Shown here piece by piece: positions 6,808-48,709 of a DNA stretch of 64,000 nt. Each line of letters begins with the position of its first letter. The first letter of the stretch is position 1. This DNA comes from Caldilineaceae bacterium (GTDB taxonomy: Bacteria > Chloroflexota > Anaerolineae > Caldilineales > Caldilineaceae). The DNA lies in contig CAXXOQ010000143.1 of NCBI GenBank assembly GCA_963664185.2, positions 3,821-67,820 of the forward strand, in the 5' to 3' direction. The notes below the pieces were generated by a model. That model was not told the DNA's origin. It did no database searches and worked only from the letters and a program-made list of their open reading frames with translations. The position numbers and the translations under genes were made by a program.

Positions 6808-7031
6808 GTCGTGTCGGTCTGCGACCTGTCTGGGCATCAAGCCTCACCGGAGAAACGGGATCGACTTCTGTCACCCAGCGCAGGTCCCAATGGCTGCGGT
6901 CGTCCCTGACTGGCTTGTGGCATTTCTGGTACACACCTTTTCCCGTTCCCGATTCCCCAAGTTCTTGGCCGGCGTGGCCGACGGGATGCCGCACGTTCGT
7001 ACAACCCGGAAAGCCGACACAGGTACCGACT

Positions 7032-7863
7032 TTATCCTCGGCCGGGGACTTGGTCGGTATTCCCGAGAGCCGTGGAAGGATCGATACCGTGCGCCTGCAG
7101 AATTCTGGATAACTTCCGTAATTCATCCTGCTGTGCAGCGATCTCGACATTCTTGGCCGTTAACCTGGCTTGCTGCTTGGCCAGCTTCCTGTCCTTCTCT
7201 TCTCCCGCCAGCAACCAGGTTTGGGTTTTCGTTCCCAGATGCGCAAGGTTCACCAACCTCGTGCATCACGCTGACAGGCGACATGCGTCTGCAGCCACCG
7301 GCTCTCCATCACCCATTCTGTCCCGGTGGTAGTAAGGGGCAAGGGCGGGTACACGCCTGCGTGCAATGCCCATCCCTGCAGGGGATCTACAGATGCGTCC
7401 CGAAACTTGCCCTGTGCATCAAAAATCCAGTATTCCTCTACCCCAAGCCCCTGATACACCTCCAGCTTGTCTACCAGGTCGCGGCGGCGCGTGGACCGCG
7501 AAAGCACTTCCACCAGCAGGGAGGGCGGCCGCTCGCAACGATCGCCATCGTATCCTTTCCCGTCATAATCGACGCTGACGTTCCTGGCGGATGCCACGTG
7601 TACCATCAGATCGGGATAGAAGACAGTTCGGATCCCCGCCACGGTGCACTTGTACCATTCGTCCCGACGTACCTCGCAGGTTTCATCCTGGAGCTGTGCC
7701 CATTGGTTCAGGGCATCCTGCAGCACAGTTTGGACATCGTTATGGGCTGGATGCACAGAAACATCCTCCCCTTGTCGCAGTCATTGCCAATCCAGTCCTG
7801 CAGTTCTTTCTTTTGTCCGGCGCCGGATTCTGTCCAGGACAGGACAGGCATAGTGGTACCCAT
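7032..7863 (-). pseudogene. Uma2-family (DUF820) endonuclease gene split into three reading-frame pieces
   Basis: The core ORF 7250-7756 has the PDLMV...PSLLVEVLS(R)ST...D...K...Y...GV.EYW(I)FD Uma2 signature. The coiled-coil C-terminal tail typical of the family (TWLLAGEE...LRKLSRILQAHGIDPS) lies in another frame (7032-7256). A GGAGGA RBS plus ATG at 7863 opens a third frame (MGTTMPVLSWTESGAGQKKELQDWIG...). Confidence 0.6.
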
Positions 7864-8117
7864 GGCAACGGTTTCCTCCTAACTGGCGACCATCTAATTG
7901 TACCTTATGGATATGAACCGCACAGGTTCAGGTTGTGCCACTGACACAGTGGGAATTGGTTGCATTGCGGGAACAGAGCGCAGGGATGGGGACGTGAGAC
8001 AGTACGCAGGATTCTGGGCAGTTCCGGGTGCACTGGATCGTATTTCATAACCCCTCAAATGCAGCAGGCGCAGGGAATTGGTGCCGAGGCTTCACGAGGC
8101 AGGCATATGGTAGTGGG

Positions 8118-8414
8118 TTACACCATGATTTTGTCCTGATGATAGCCCCTTTGTGTATCCAGCACACTGTCGGTAACCCTCCCGCGTTTGACCTTGCAGT
8201 ACAACATGAAGATTCCTCTGTCAGGGCATCCGGCGGCTTTTCGGACATTGGGGGAAAGGTACTGTCGGCTCTGGTAACCCTGCGCCAAAGGACTGCGCCC
8301 CATCCAGTCCATCCCGTTTGGGTTTCCGGATTCAGGTATAGGCCATCGGCTGTCGATCGCTTCGTCACGGCTGAGGTCCGTATCCCGCAACTTTACCCCG
8401 ATACCGTCAAACAC
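8118..8414 (-). CDS. Hypothetical protein or gene fragment with no recognisable family
   Basis: 98 aa ORF with a GTG start in a more AT-rich stretch. The frame stays open upstream almost to the ADH stop with no ATG, so it may be a remnant. Confidence 0.25.
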   Translation of the reverse strand: MFDGIGVKLRDTDLSRDEAIDSRWPIPESGNPNGMDWMGRSPLAQGYQSRQYLSPNVRKAAGCPDRGIFMLYCKVKRGRVTDSVLDTQRGYHQDKIMV

Positions 8415-8524
8415 GCCCTGTTCCGGGATCGGTACAGTTATGCTGCCAGACCGGGGCCCACAGTCGCCCTGCGGCGAGCAAGGAGGAGCAGACCGGCTCC
8501 CTTTCCCGGTATGCTGGCCTCACA

Positions 8525-10511: not shown

Positions 10512-10551
10512 GGGAAGCAGGCAGGTCGCGGGTAAAGGGGGTACGGCGAAT

Positions 10552-15058: not shown

Positions 15059-15727
15059 ATGTCCCACGTTTTGTACGCGTGCAGACGGCACTACCTGGGA
15101 TCGTTCAACATACTCTCCACGCTGCTGATCCTGGGGGGACTGGGCGCGGTTCTGGTCGGTGCGGGTATCACGCCCTGGCCTTCGATTCTGGGCTTGCTGA
15201 TCGCGCTGCTGCCGCTGGGGATTCTGGGCCTGGATCTCCATGCCCGCCGCCAGCATTACGTGCAGTTCACCCCCGACAGGGCGGCAGTATCCCCCGCTCC
15301 GCTGGCTCCCGGGCGCAAACTGCGCATTCGTGCTACCGGCTGGTTTGAGGTAGAAGACAAGCACCAGATTCACGTGTGGCTGGAGGGGTACTATCGTACC
15401 TTTCCCACGCGGGAACATGCGGTGATTGCGCTGTGTGCTCCCACATCGCTGTGGGGCTGGGGGCGCAGCCGCAGCCAGGACGATGGCATGTGGTACATGT
15501 TCATTCGGCCCGAAGACATCCTGCAGGTGCAAAGCGGTGACCTTGCGTTTGGCCAGGAACGCTTGGCTGGCGTACGTCTTGCCTATCGTGCGCTTGTGCC
15601 TGGGAAATTCCGCCGGAAACGGCTCCGGCAACAGGACTGCATTGCCTATCTGGGTTTCCCCAACCGGCCGGAGGCCTTGCTGGCAACGGGGGATTTGCTG
15701 TACGACGCCCCATCAGACCAACCATGA
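15059..15727 (+). CDS. Hypothetical membrane protein (2 N-terminal TM helices)
   Basis: 222 aa ORF beginning 51 nt after ftsH on the same strand. No family recognised. Confidence 0.5.
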   Translation: MSHVLYACRRHYLGSFNILSTLLILGGLGAVLVGAGITPWPSILGLLIALLPLGILGLDLHARRQHYVQFTPDRAAVSPAPLAPGRKLRIRATGWFEVEDKHQIHVWLEGYYRTFPTREHAVIALCAPTSLWGWGRSRSQDDGMWYMFIRPEDILQVQSGDLAFGQERLAGVRLAYRALVPGKFRRKRLRQQDCIAYLGFPNRPEALLATGDLLYDAPSDQP

Positions 15728-16089
15728 ACGGGACACAGCCAATGCGCGCTTGTCCGTTCCCATGGGCCACGCATGACCACGCATAGCCGTGTGGGATGGG
15801 GGATTGAGGAAACCCTGACAGGGACATCCTGTACACAGGTGCTGGGAGGACGCAACGTCCATGCCTCCCGCCGTGGCGTAGCCCTCTGCCCTTGGGTTGC
15901 ATACCCGTACGTTCATGCCGTACCGGTAAGTTGATCGCGGCAAGTCCCTCCGCCTTCATACGCACGCTGCATGACAGACCATGGCATTGGGCTTGTGTAC
16001 TGCGGGTATGGCATCGCTCTGCCTGCAGTGCCCGCGGCCAGGGCCCAGTGCAGTATTCGGTGTGGCAACAGGCAGCCCGTCCCGAACGG

Positions 16090-16638
16090 TCACCGGTTCG
16101 GCCCCGGGATTTTCTTCCCGGTTCTGATCATGATTTCCGCGGAGTTGCCGGGTACCTCCGGCGGCTGAATGCCATCTGCCGTGGATTGCGTTGCAGCTGT
16201 AACCTCACCCCCTTCCCAGATTTCCACCACAAACTGATCCAAGCCACGAGGAGCAGGACCGTCGAGATACTCTCCTTCGCGGGTGAACTGGGAAGCATGC
16301 CAGGGTCACCCGAAACGGCAATTGGCAGCAACCCACTTGTACAGGCAACCCAGATGCGGACAAACCATATAGAGTGCGCGGGGTTCCTGCTCCGTATTGA
16401 CCAGCCAATACTTGCCGGCGGCATGACTCAGGAGTGAGTCCGACGAAGCGGACAGCGCAGCGGCCGGGCCCAAGGGGAATTCGCCTCCGAATTCTCCCGC
16501 CCGAAACCGGGGATACATGAACAGGTCCGTCGCCACGACCTGTTGCAATGACACCAGGCCAACCATGGCCACCCACGAATAGGCCAGAAATGCGCGCCTG
16601 TTCCGTTGACTTCCGGCGTAGAGACGGAATGCGTGCAT
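16090..16638 (-). pseudogene. Rieske [2Fe-2S] protein (cytochrome b6f/bc PetC/QcrA type) interrupted by a single in-frame TGA at 16306-16308. Either a pseudogene or a recoded gene.
   Basis: AAGGAGG RBS 5 nt before the ATG at 16638, a Tat-like NRRAFL motif, and box I CPHLGC. Eighteen residues later, where box II CPCHGS is expected, the frame reads TGA-P-W-H-A-S. The same frame then continues with QFTREGEYLDGPAPRGLDQFVVEIWEGGEV... to a stop at 16090. Confidence 0.7.
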
Positions 16639-16840
16639 AGTTGCCTCCTTTGACGGCCATTGTATTATCATTATCGGCGCCATGATACAGCAGGAAGTGA
16701 CCGCACCGCAGCTATCTTCCTTTATGCATGAACTGGCCGTCCCGCGAACCTCCCGTCTCAGGACAAGCACAACCTGGACGGAAGCAGTTTGCCGGAAAGT
16801 ATTTTGGATCCAAGCAACGCGGATTCATTGAAAGATTGGC

Positions 16841-17281
16841 ATGCCTGTCCACCGCCCCGACTGGGATCAGTATTTTTTTGAAGTTGCGCGCGTTGTGGCT
16901 TCCCGGAGCACCTGCAACAGGGCTGCAGTCGGGTGCGTCATTGTGCGCGAACGCCGTATACTCACCACAGGGTATAACGGTGCGCCCACCGGGTTGCCAC
17001 ATTGTGACGATGTCGGACACCTGATAGAGAACGGTCATTGCATCCGCACCTTGCATGCCGAACAGAACGCCCTGATTCAGGCAGCCCTGCATGGTGTAAG
17101 CACCAGGGGTGCCACCCTCTATGTAACTCACCAGCCCTGTTTCACCTGTGCCAAGATGATCGTCAATGCCGGTATCGTCAGGGTCGTTCACGGCCGCGGC
17201 TATGAATCACCGCAAAGCCTGCAGCTGTTTGACGAGGCTGGCATCAGGCATGAAGCCCTGCTCGGATCCCACACGGGTTAG
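16841..17281 (+). CDS. Deoxycytidylate (dCMP) deaminase
   Basis: 146 aa ORF with HAEQNA and PCFTCAKMI zinc-binding CDA motifs. Confidence 0.9.
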   Translation: MPVHRPDWDQYFFEVARVVASRSTCNRAAVGCVIVRERRILTTGYNGAPTGLPHCDDVGHLIENGHCIRTLHAEQNALIQAALHGVSTRGATLYVTHQPCFTCAKMIVNAGIVRVVHGRGYESPQSLQLFDEAGIRHEALLGSHTG

Positions 17282-20698: not shown

Positions 20699-21484
20699 AT
20701 GTCCCATTCTGTTCTTGACATCGCCGGTGTTTCCAAGGTCTTTGGCGGCTTGCGGGCGGTCCAGGAGGTAGACTGCGCCATTGAAGCCGGAACGATCATG
20801 TCCATTATCGGGCCCAATGGCGCCGGCAAGACCACCCTGTTCAATTGCATCAGCGGTTTGTATGTCCCTACCGAAGGGGACATCCTGTTGCAGGGACGCC
20901 GCATCCAATGGCCTGTCCCCGGACCGCATCGCGCACCTGGGCGTGGCGCGCACCTATCAGAAACATCCGTCTCTTCAGCCAGATGACGGTTCTGGAAAAC
21001 GTGAATGCTGGGCCAGGAACGTCTTCTGCGCACTTCGTGGCTCGGTGCCATTGTGGGTACGCCCGCCTCCCGGCGCGAGATGGCCGAAGTCGTGGCCCGG
21101 GCCCACGACACCCTGGACTATGTGGGCCTGGCCGGCCAGGAGGCACGCATGGCCGGAGAACTGTCCTATGGGGATCAACGGCGCCTGGAGATAGGCCGCG
21201 CGCTGGCGAGCGAGCCGTCTCTGCTGTTGCTGGACGAACCTACAGCCGGCATGAATCCCCGGGAAAGCGCCGAGGCACGCCATTTCTTCCGGCGACTGCG
21301 CGACGAGAAGAACATTACCCTGTTGCTGATTGAGCATGATATGCGGGTCGTCATGGACATCTCGGATCAGATCGCCGTGCTCAACTACGGCGCCAAGATT
21401 GCCGAGGGGACACCGGAGGAGATCCGTACGAATCCCCAGGTCATCGAGGCGTATCTGGGTGCCGAGATGGCCGAAGAGTCGTAG
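20699..21484 (+). pseudogene. livG: Branched-chain amino acid ABC transporter ATP-binding protein LivG, disrupted by three +1 single-base insertions
   Basis: Walker A GPNGAGKTT is in frame 2. The expected NGLSPDRIAHLGVARTYQ and NIRLFSQMTVLENV segments appear in the two other frames. The original frame resumes at MLGQERLL with LSYGDQRRLEIGRAL and LLLLDEPTAGMN. Confidence 0.8.
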
Positions 21485-22498: not shown

Positions 22499-23880
22499 CT
22501 ATGGGCGCCATGTTGCATCCAAGTATCTTTTGCGGGCATCCATTTCCACATCCAGAAAATCAACAGGCCATTCACCGAACGAACCATCTTGTTGAATGTC
22601 AGCCTGTTCTATGTGGGTGTTGCCTTCGCCATCCAGCGCAAACCAGTTCAGACTCACGTCTTGTGGTTTGAGATCACCTTGGGCTACCAGCGTTTGAATA
22701 CCCAGAAGAAGCAATTCACTGTGCGTTTCAATTACAATGCGCACCCCCCTTTGGACGGCGGCACGGAGAACGTCAGCCAAAGCATAAATGCCTTTAGGGT
22801 GAAGATGCAGTTCCGGTTGTTCAATAACGACCAATTGATCGCGTTTGGCTGCCCGCAGCGCAACCAGCAACGGCAGGACCTGGAACAGACCAAGACCTGC
22901 ATCAGCGACATTGACCATGTGGGAGAGTTGACGTTGCAAGCCGGGAACAAAACGTCCAATCATCACTTCCAGGGCAGTATCCCCTACCGTCTGCACTTCC
23001 ACTTCGGACGTTAAGTCAAGGGCAAGCAAATCAGCTTTAAGACCCTGCATCTGTTCACTGTCGGTTTCCCAATGCTGTATCACACTTGCAAAATAGTGAT
23101 GCATCAAACCCGGAAAGGAATCTCCCATGGGTGTCCGCGCGAAAGTTCGCGCAAATGCAGGATCGCGGAGACCAGGCACATGCATGACGTCAGTGATCAA
23201 ACATGCCACCTGGTGACTGACAGGAATTCCATAGGATGCGTTCTCACTTTTCCCAGTCATCCAATACATCAACGCCAATATCCAAAAAGCTTCGCGTCCT
23301 CACTCCACGCGCTGTAACGTGGTAAGGCACCGGAGGCTTCATCTTGCAAGGGAAGCATCGCCCCACCAAAGAGCCTGGCGGCTTCCTTTGCTACCTCAAT
23401 GGGGATGCTGCCTTCTGTGTTACAAAGCGTTTGGGAATTCCGGGCACCAGGGACATGGTCATCCCAAAAATCCACCAACTCGCGTTCAAGGGAAATCGTG
23501 CCGTCCTGTGCACGTTGAAACTCCAGGGAAAAAGTCAGTTCAAGATCTTGGAAGCGATAGCCTATCCCAATTTTCAGATCTTGCTCGCGAGCGTTGGCAT
23601 TGCCATGGCCAAGCAATTGCGAAGTCAGCAACAACTCAACGTTGGGACCATCTATCTTGAGAGGGCCAGGATCAAAAGGTGCTTCAAGGGTTTGCTTGAG
23701 AAGCAGCAACGGTTGTATCATGCTGCTTTTGCCGCTGCTGTTTGCTCCTGCAAGCAGGGTGAGCGGACGCACAGCAAGCGGTTGTGCCTTGCGCAGCGAT
23801 TTGTAACCTGAAACCACCAACCTGGTGATTCGTCCACCGTTCATGGAACCTGCTCCCCGCTGGCGCCAACTTTCAACCAT
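22499..23880 (-). pseudogene. ABC-fold AAA_15/21-type ATPase with a DUF3696-like C-terminus, split by one frameshift near 23269-23290
   Basis: N-terminal ORF (23269-23880) has Walker A LLAGANSSGKSS. C-terminal ORF (22499-23278) has Walker B LVVIEQPELHLHP, ETHSELLL, and the C-terminal FGEWPVDFLD motif I associate with DUF3696. The two ORFs overlap by 10 nt next to a T5 run. Confidence 0.7.
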
Positions 23881-47209: not shown

Positions 47210-48443
47210 TCAAGCAGAAAACGACGCCGTGCATAACGATTCTTCTTCCAACAAGAGGCCCTGCTTCCACAATTCACCAGGCCTGTCTCCCTCTCCTATC
47301 AGGTTGTGCAACAGGGCATAATCATGTGCCCGCTTCACGGTGCTGAAGCCCGCTTGCTTCACCAGCCCCACAATTTCGTGCAGCTCCATGCAATTCAGCA
47401 ATTCAGGCGAGTGGGTGGCAATGAACACCTGGCCTCCACGTCGGGCATAAGCGCGAAATTCGGCAGTCAGTTCTGGCAATAACCTGGGATAGAGCTGATT
47501 CTCAGGTTGTTCCACTGCCAGAACGGAATTGAGGATGATAGAGCAACACCAGATAAGCAAACATTTTTGTGGTGCCATCAGAAACATGGCGTGAGAGGAA
47601 GGGATCCCTGAAGTTGCCATCCTGGAAACGCAGTGCCAGGCGTCCGTCCTCAGTCGACAGGGCATCCACATGACTCACACCAGGTATCCGCTGGCGCATG
47701 GCGGCCAACACCTGATCAAAGCTTGCGGGGTGATGGGCAAAGAGCGATTGGGCCACTTGGGCAAGGTTATCCCCTCGTAGGGAAAGGTATGCGGCACTGG
47801 ACCGAGCGTCGGCAACACGAAAATCCGAGACGTACCAACTCTCAATGAGGCGGCGCAATGCGGCAACGACACGAAACTCGCGAAACTGGCCCAGGCCTTT
47901 GATCGCAAGTAGGCTGGGATCGTCCAAGGTATACCTGTCCCATTGCACAACTGCCTCCTCAGCCCCATAAGCCGACTCGTTGGCAATTGCTTGACCCACC
48001 CCCTTGCGAAAGTCCAGAAAACGCCAGGGCTGTCCCCTCTGCCCTCTTTGATACTGGAGATATTCGTGATCTACCAACGCGTTGCCGTGTGGGGATGAGA
48101 TTGCAAGGTGGTATGTAACCAACCTGCCACTTCCTGCATGAAACTTGACGGTAATTTGCATGGGTCCTTGTGTCCCACGGCTAACCAGTTCCGAGAATCC
48201 TCCCCGCTTTGTGACTGCAGCAGCCACATTCTGATGGAGGGCATCCTTGAGGAAGGCAAGTACGTCGAAGAAGGTGGTCTTTCCCGATCCATTCGCACCG
48301 ATGATGACCACCATAGGCGGAAGGTTTCGCAATGAGATATGGCGGAAGAGCCGATAATTTCTTATCTCGATGCTCTCTATGCGTTTAGCCTGCACGGGCC
48401 GATTCTGATCGGATTCGGTAATCCGCCAATGGGCTTTGTTCAT
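47210..48443 (-). pseudogene. ABC-fold AAA_21/AAA_15-type ATPase, split by one frameshift near 47530-47545
   Basis: The N-terminal part has IESIEIRNYRLF and Walker A IGANGSGKTT, then SDGTTKMFAYLVLLYHPQ. The frame then shifts to NSVLAVEQPENQLYP (Walker B), ATHSPELL and a GELWKQGLL tail. The start was assigned to the ATG at 48443. Confidence 0.7.
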
Positions 48444-48709
48444 GATTGGGGGCAAGTACGGGTGGCTTTGGCAAAAACCCTTGAAAGTCCAGAATTGCAG
48501 GTTCACTGTATGCATCTGGATACCCAAAACAGGCACCAGAGGAATTGCAGTCCCCCTTTGCCGGGCAATTGCGGTAGTTTCCCCATGATGAAGTGCCTGT
48601 TGACAGGTCCGGGGGAGTAGACCAACAGGTCCAGTGTACTGCATCTGTCCGGCAGGGCCTTCCCTCTCCCGGGGTTAAGAGAGGACAATGCACCGGTATA
48701 ATCGGGCCT

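Follow-up and report, generated by a model that had tools for sequence, protein, structure and literature searches.

The iron-sulfur (Rieske) subunit of bc1/b6f complexes (PetC/QcrA; PF00355) is the described system closest to the locus reported here, which lies in a stretch of 64,000 nucleotides from a Caldilineaceae bacterium (the window, i.e., the whole stretch of DNA that was analysed). A search of 5.8 billion proteins gave 214 homologs of the gene in question. The best of them are Caldilineaceae (Chloroflexota) Rieske proteins of ~300 aa (P0001-P0004) with 65-70% amino acid identity, and all of these carry CTHLGC...CPCHGS. Their genes are arranged as ValRS, then Rieske-cytochrome b (544 aa)-cytochrome c, and they are therefore the iron-sulfur subunit of a respiratory bc-type complex. 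The gene in the window (hereafter the orphan) resembles the canonical protein of this Caldilineaceae operon (P0001-P0004, P0003/P0126) in the core at the above level of identity, the twin-arginine (RR) motif, the anchor helix, box I C-x-H-x-G-C and the spacing of the boxes, and its C-terminal half is colinear with the canonical one without indels. It differs in box II, which reads stop-P-W-H rather than C-P-C-H, and in the lack of the ~120-aa N-terminal extension found in the ~300-aa homologs. It also has no adjacent cytochrome b or c gene, is located in a species-specific insertion and shows neutral evolution.

A short orphan paralog of another Caldilineaceae lineage (P0067, 160 aa) likewise has neither the N-terminal extension nor a cytochrome b neighbour and shares CPHLGC, VAAN and H-A-S-Q-F with the gene in the window; however, its CPCH is intact, the identity is only 61%, the genomic context is different and the C-terminus is shorter; a common origin is not established. 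This intact paralog (CPHLGC...CPCHAS) is found just 3' of the SUF Fe-S assembly operon, and that operon itself includes a Rieske-type gene of ~105-111 aa (L005 9081-10483, L006 9081-10483, L007 4273-5693).

Two further systems invite comparison. Bacterial selenoprotein genes (e.g., formate dehydrogenase FdhF) share with the orphan a UGA at the position of the homologs' Cys and an open downstream frame; unlike them, the orphan has no SECIS-like element, is confined to one species, is unconstrained in its upstream half and has its neighbouring functional Cys destroyed. The +1 frameshifting of the prfB type is brought to mind by an in-frame UGA followed by C and by a substitution pattern hinting at different frames on its two sides. 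Unlike prfB, the orphan on inspection lacks a CUU-U-type slippery codon as well as an SD-like element suitably spaced ahead of the UGA, and the frames implied by the substitutions (the alternative frame, then the Rieske frame) are not those that a shift at this UGA connects.

The features of the locus are listed below by their positions in the window; L001 denotes the contig of a second strain.

16090-16638, minus strand: highly probable pseudogene of an orphan Rieske copy (182 codons, counting an internal and the terminal TGA)
16644-16650, minus strand: Shine-Dalgarno (SD) sequence AAGGAGG, with a 5-nt spacer to the ATG at 16638
16585-16602, minus strand: twin-arginine motif NRRAFL, codons 13-18 (NRREFL in L001 and in all intact homologs)
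16345-16362, minus strand: box I CPHLGC, codons 93-98 (CPHRGC in the L001 strain)
16306-16308, minus strand: in-frame TGA, codon 111, at the first box II Cys, a [2Fe-2S] ligand (Cys in 118/118 intact homologs; TGA also in L001-L004)
16300-16302, minus strand: TGG (Trp) at the second box II Cys, the disulfide Cys (Cys in 118/118 homologs; TGG common to both strains)
16281-16311, minus strand: hairpin containing the TGA, a by-product of the local sequence and not a conserved element
16205-16660, minus strand: alternative-frame ORF of 151 aa, in whose frame the inter-strain changes upstream of the TGA are mostly synonymous
15728-16840, no strand assigned: lineage-specific segment of ~1.1 kb between the 222-aa gene and the dCMP deaminase gene, missing in three sister species
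15059-15727, plus strand: 222-aa gene, upstream flank of the insert
16841-17281, plus strand: dCMP deaminase gene, downstream flank of the insert

The initial annotation of this DNA described a ribosome-binding site 5 nt before the ATG, the NRRAFL and CPHLGC motifs and the absence of a frameshift, all of which we reproduced from the sequence, together with the 71 Rieske-like codons that it reported after the TGA. These follow codon 111 up to the TGA at 16092-16090, again with no frameshift. It also placed the TGA at the box II ligand Cys and a Trp at the disulfide Cys. The alignment to 118 intact homologs bears this out: the box II codons are TGA-CCC-TGG-CAT-GCT-TCC where the homologs encode Cys-Pro-Cys-His. 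The spacing of 18 given there for the two boxes (first to third Cys) is equal to that of the intact homologs. A read-through product with Cys substituted at the TGA scores 36.4 bits against the Pfam Rieske family PF00355 (cut-off 20.3). The codon alignment with intact relatives, a comparison that the annotation had proposed for the TGA codon, contains no indels. In it the TGA and the TGG coincide exactly with TGC/TGT codons of relatives whose Cys-Pro-Cys-His is intact, hence each lesion is a single third-base change. Among the properties of a functional Rieske protein, the similarity to PF00355 and the box I C-x-H-x-G-C are thus present, and the box II C-x-C-H is lost.

The TGA, the TGG and the terminal stop recur in L001-L004, independent contigs that stem from four other samples; the identical codon in four independent assemblies rules out a sequencing or assembly error at the TGA. 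An internal restart downstream of the TGA is rejected as well, because the sole nearby in-frame start, TTG133, is CTG in L001. The whole protein database contains only two truncated calls of 110 aa, namely P0005 (that of the window itself) and P0046, which has 85% identity and comes from other sponge metagenomes. No other protein among the 5.8 billion has the TGA/Cys-Pro-Trp-His form in the same context, the degenerate DNA pattern TGN-CCN-TGG-CAY... has 0 matches in genome contigs and metagenome contigs, and a peptide-word scan of species-representative genomes revealed no relatives. The TGA form is carried by only two haplotypes, both of one species.

The surroundings of the orphan were compared with three sister species found via homologs of the 222-aa gene (71-77% identity; L011-L015). 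The gene order is the same in 3/3 of them: SecDF, then SpoU-FtsH-222 aa-dCMP deaminase-ABC transporter. The gap between the 222-aa gene and the dCMP deaminase gene is 42-55 nt in these species versus 1113 nt in the window, and the homology to them ends at ~15714 and restarts at ~16838. Within the insert, only 16607-16099 resembles Rieske DNA (~70% nucleotide identity); remnants of cytochrome b, ValRS or the N-terminal extension were sought in the insert and none was found, and the 64-kb window contains no cytochrome b homolog at all. Considering that these remnants are missing and that the match is limited to 16607-16099, a segmental duplication of the bc operon is ruled out. Terminal direct or inverted repeats, the signature of a mobile element, could not be found convincingly at the insert. 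Since the insert is missing in the sister species and has no cytochrome b or ValRS remnant, the segment is specific to the species and the Rieske gene within it is an orphan copy.

For the flanking 222-aa gene, Pfam gave no match, and the 5.8 billion proteins include just four homologs at E<=1e-10; nevertheless, its pN/pS of 0.04 reflects strong purifying selection, and it is restricted to the clade, with no recognisable family. The public gene calls at the locus are misleading, as they comprise a 110-aa "protein" and a 191-aa antisense ORF. The latter, at 15892-16437 on the plus strand (L001 10202-10777) and listed as a protein of 181-191 aa, has a pN/pS of 0.86 and no Pfam match and is almost certainly a spurious call.

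L001, the contig that encodes P0046, runs colinear with the window across 20.3 kb with a nucleotide identity of 97.6%; it is thus a second strain of the window's species. Between the strains, pN/pS is 0.03-0.18 and pS mostly 0.04-0.08 in 13 neighbouring genes, i.e., those with a recognisable family or, in the case of the 222-aa gene, with conserved homologs; it is 0.36 in a gene of the Uma2 family located in a divergence hot spot. The 110 codons of the Rieske frame before the TGA contain 3 synonymous and 17 non-synonymous changes (pN/pS 1.8-1.9), and pN in this part (0.065-0.069) is at or slightly above the pS of the neighbours (0.04-0.08). The 71 codons after the TGA contain 4 synonymous and 2 non-synonymous changes, only six in all, with pN/pS of ~0.16-0.21. 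The replacements here are below the neutral prediction (Poisson p 0.002-0.025), which resembles constraint, and the local divergence varies widely along the 20 kb. The interval 15728-16840 diverges at ~4.5 per 100 nt, and so do its non-genic parts. For the same pair of strains, 19/181 residues differ in the orphan versus 1/301 in the canonical Rieske protein (Fisher p = 2.7e-6). Both marks of a bc/b6f Rieske subunit, an adjacent cytochrome b and purifying selection on the coding sequence, are missing from the orphan.

The damage was scored at 52 positions conserved in at least 95% of the 118 intact homologs. At these positions, the damaging changes common to both strains are only C111stop and C113W; T94P is also common to both, and this variant occurs in intact proteins too. 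Beyond these, E16, P63 and P69 are gone from the window strain, and Y90 and L96 of box I from the L001 strain, each of them 100% conserved in the intact homologs. The frame has neither an indel nor a second stop in either strain, and a single position differs between the strains in the SD sequence and the 62 nt upstream; both observations count against a pseudogene. Against every intact relative, the orphan shows pS of 0.65-0.79 (saturated) and dN of ~0.2; therefore, the constraint was held for most of its history and the loss is recent.

An intact canonical operon probably belongs to the same genome as the orphan, judging by co-occurrence in samples rather than by a closed genome. Two versions of the canonical protein, P0003 (NCBI and ENA) and P0126 (Logan and ENA), are split between sources in the same way as the strain versions of the truncated Rieske gene and of its 222-aa neighbour. 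P0126 is encoded in an intact operon (ValRS, then Rieske-cytochrome b-cytochrome c) in ERZ23495289, SRR18245579 and SRR18245567, the samples that gave L001-L003. The two versions are identical at 300/301 positions; the single difference falls in the Pro/Ala linker, and there are 0 in the core.

We consider it highly probable that the locus is a recently inactivated orphan Rieske pseudogene that is now drifting. Of its two readings, the initial annotation had preferred the young pseudogene, derived from an orphan Rieske paralog, to UGA recoding such as selenocysteine, and its choice is supported by the species-specific insert, the intact canonical operon, the pN/pS of 1.8 and the lost invariant residues. 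What is expected of a pseudogene is observed: a lesion at an essential site, an intact copy elsewhere (the same-genome link being one of co-occurrence) and a neutral rate of change (the last 71 codons having too few changes to judge). We infer the following sequence of events, and also that the gene is neither expressed nor functional. It would be a unitary pseudogene, originally a spare, core-only copy of a Rieske subunit of the bc/b6f type, with an RR membrane anchor and a cluster-binding domain, having neither the N-terminal extension nor a cytochrome b partner, and purifying selection presumably acted on it for most of its history. Since the box II lesions are common to both strains and the other losses of invariant residues are strain-specific, box II would have been hit shortly before the strains split, both its Cys being lost by third-base changes (TGY>TGA and TGY>TGG), with drift ever since. 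This loss would abolish the binding of [2Fe-2S] and truncate the product at residue 110. The subsequent drift runs close to the neutral rate, and too little time may have passed for indels or more stops, hence the frame would still look intact. The respiratory complex would draw its Rieske subunit from the other Rieske-cytochrome b-cytochrome c operon, which is intact and highly conserved.

A recently dead orphan Rieske paralog is an ordinary finding. Nevertheless, it offers a clean case, which can be dated, of decay in a redundant paralog of the respiratory chain of one sponge-associated Caldilineaceae species. It also calls for caution, as an in-frame TGA at a catalytic Cys and an open downstream frame are insufficient to call a selenoprotein.

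There is a small chance that the locus is not inert, either because the UGA is decoded (as Sec, Cys or Trp) with an unprecedented cluster ligand set or because an overprinted chimeric product is under purifying selection. Either outcome, a Rieske cluster ligated by Sec or a freshly overprinted ORF, would give the locus true biochemical or evolutionary interest; the evidence is against both. The selenoprotein reading, in which the UGA is decoded as selenocysteine or else read through as Cys or Trp to yield a full-length Rieske protein with a Sec-Pro-Trp-His box II, is in our opinion very unlikely. It is suggested by the position of the TGA exactly at the Cys codon, which is the usual Sec/Cys relationship, by the frame that stays open for 71 more codons in both strains, where 4 changes are synonymous and 2 non-synonymous, and by the hairpin that includes the UGA; moreover, UGA followed by C is a weak termination context. 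Yet any functional product needs the anchor and box I, where pN/pS is 1.8, and this lack of constraint is decisive against any full-length product. Residues that are 100% invariant were lost independently in each strain, the disulfide Cys is Trp, and the gene is partnerless in a recent insertion. The TGA common to two strains of one species amounts to simple inheritance, with no carrier that is more distant; the orphan has the UGA at the homologs' Cys, and it has neither a SECIS stem-loop nor conservation across diverged lineages. The hairpin at 16281-16311, noted in the initial annotation, does exist (-13 kcal/mol; z = -2.0 for the 31-mer alone), and the objection made there that it is too close to the UGA for a SECIS element proved correct. 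With a loop that begins 6 nt past the UGA and lacks G at its first positions, it falls outside the rules for bacterial SECIS elements. In the 91-nt context z is -0.43, as in shuffled sequences, and Rfam models, including those of SECIS, gave no match on 15900-16900 at the gathering or E<=10 thresholds. L001 carries a G>C at 16310 that is not compensated and weakens the hairpin to -7.5 kcal/mol (5.5 lost). As the intact canonical sequence does not form this hairpin, the structure is a by-product of the mutated codons. A genome-wide reassignment of TGA is ruled out, as it ends 6/13 conserved neighbouring genes and the orphan frame itself, and no description of a Sec-ligated Rieske cluster was found in the literature searched. 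Neither sel genes nor tRNAs occur in the 64-kb window. SelA and SelB are reported to be common, being found in most sponge-symbiont bins (PMC5649159), which speaks for recoding; therefore, we do not rely on the absence of the Sec machinery, and the case rests on the evolution of the gene itself.

The distribution of changes upstream of the TGA raises a different question, since 14/20 differences fall at position 2 of the Rieske codons. A base-preserving permutation for any phase gives p ~0.0025, in a post hoc test on one pair of haplotypes with 20 changes. Composition was rejected as the cause of this excess: with GC of 0.63/0.49/0.68 at the three codon positions, p remains 0.0025 in the permutation. 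In the alternative frame, 15 of the changes upstream of the TGA are synonymous and 5 non-synonymous (ratio 0.13), with no stops, and downstream of it the Rieske frame is the best fit (4 synonymous, 2 non-synonymous); the N:S contrast between the halves on either side has p = 0.028. Taken literally, this pattern would mean that the relic has been re-used, with an alternative-frame product (16660-16205), possibly joined by a +1 shift to the downstream Rieske frame, under purifying selection. The 15:5 and 4:2 ratios, the periodicity, the contrast between the halves and a bias beyond GC composition agree with this proposal; still, we regard it as very unlikely. Apart from the post hoc nature and small size of the test, the proposal requires a pS of 0.16, or 2-3 times that of the genome, whereas the 26 changes taken together are as many as neutrality predicts. 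It is the ATG of the Rieske frame that has the SD sequence, and the ATG at 16660 has none; inspection of 16310-16250 reveals no evident slippery or prfB-like shift site. The 151-aa product is rich in Arg, Gly and Pro, with no Pfam or other family match, its GC3 would be 0.49, and the long-term divergence clearly follows the Rieske frame. The position-2 excess, which plain neutral drift does not explain, is most likely due to chance combined with local variation of divergence. It is very improbable that the 110-residue N-terminal fragment (the anchor and half of the domain) is still made, either with a residual role or as a harmful product disabled by selection for radical replacements. In favour of such a fragment are the strong SD sequence, the preserved upstream region, a pN/pS above 1 and the location of 18/20 changes at codon positions 1-2, often as radical replacements (e.g., Q>P, L>R, G>D, P>L). 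However, the observed 17:3 does not differ significantly from the neutral expectation of 3:1, the minus strand has no promoter-like site, and the protein database contains no family of such fragments. We thus retain the recently inactivated, drifting pseudogene as the preferred reading.

A few observations concern other parts of the window and of the related contigs. The strongest hot spot of divergence between the strains is at 6850-8440 (up to 35 substitutions per 330 nt, with indels of 7, 9 and 14 nt), around the Uma2-family gene and the adjacent non-coding DNA; this region may be variable or mobile. Compared with L001, the window has single-base indels of homopolymer length at 20905, 20961 and 21004, at 22500, 23248 and 23335, and also at 10537 and 17777. 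The genes hit by them are intact in L001; they include an ABC ATPase gene with three +1 insertions within 100 nt and an AAA_15/AAA_21 ATPase gene split into ORFs 22499-23278 and 23269-23880. This looks like assembly error in the window and not biology, and lone single-base frameshifts here are not to be trusted without reads. A second AAA_15/AAA_21 (AbiEii-like) ATPase gene is split into the overlapping ORFs 47210-47671 and 47502-48644 on the minus strand, which may be due to a homopolymer indel or a real frameshift.

The canonical Rieske protein of this clade (genes L008 8001-8921, L010 8001-8885 and L016 6001-6906) begins with a conserved segment, MAELSPAEKWIxEAKRRVAERxGETYDPE, followed by a Pro/Ala-rich linker of ~90 aa and then by the RR motif. 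This puts the motif ~130 residues into the protein, an unusual position in a Tat-targeted Rieske subunit. The region 3' of the bc operon in the samples of the L001 strain (L016 9923-12906, L017 8288-11271) contains, in this order, a UvrD-like helicase gene, a DarT-domain gene and a large gene with ADP-ribosylglycohydrolase/glyoxalase domains, a set that resembles a DarT-type toxin-antitoxin or defence module.
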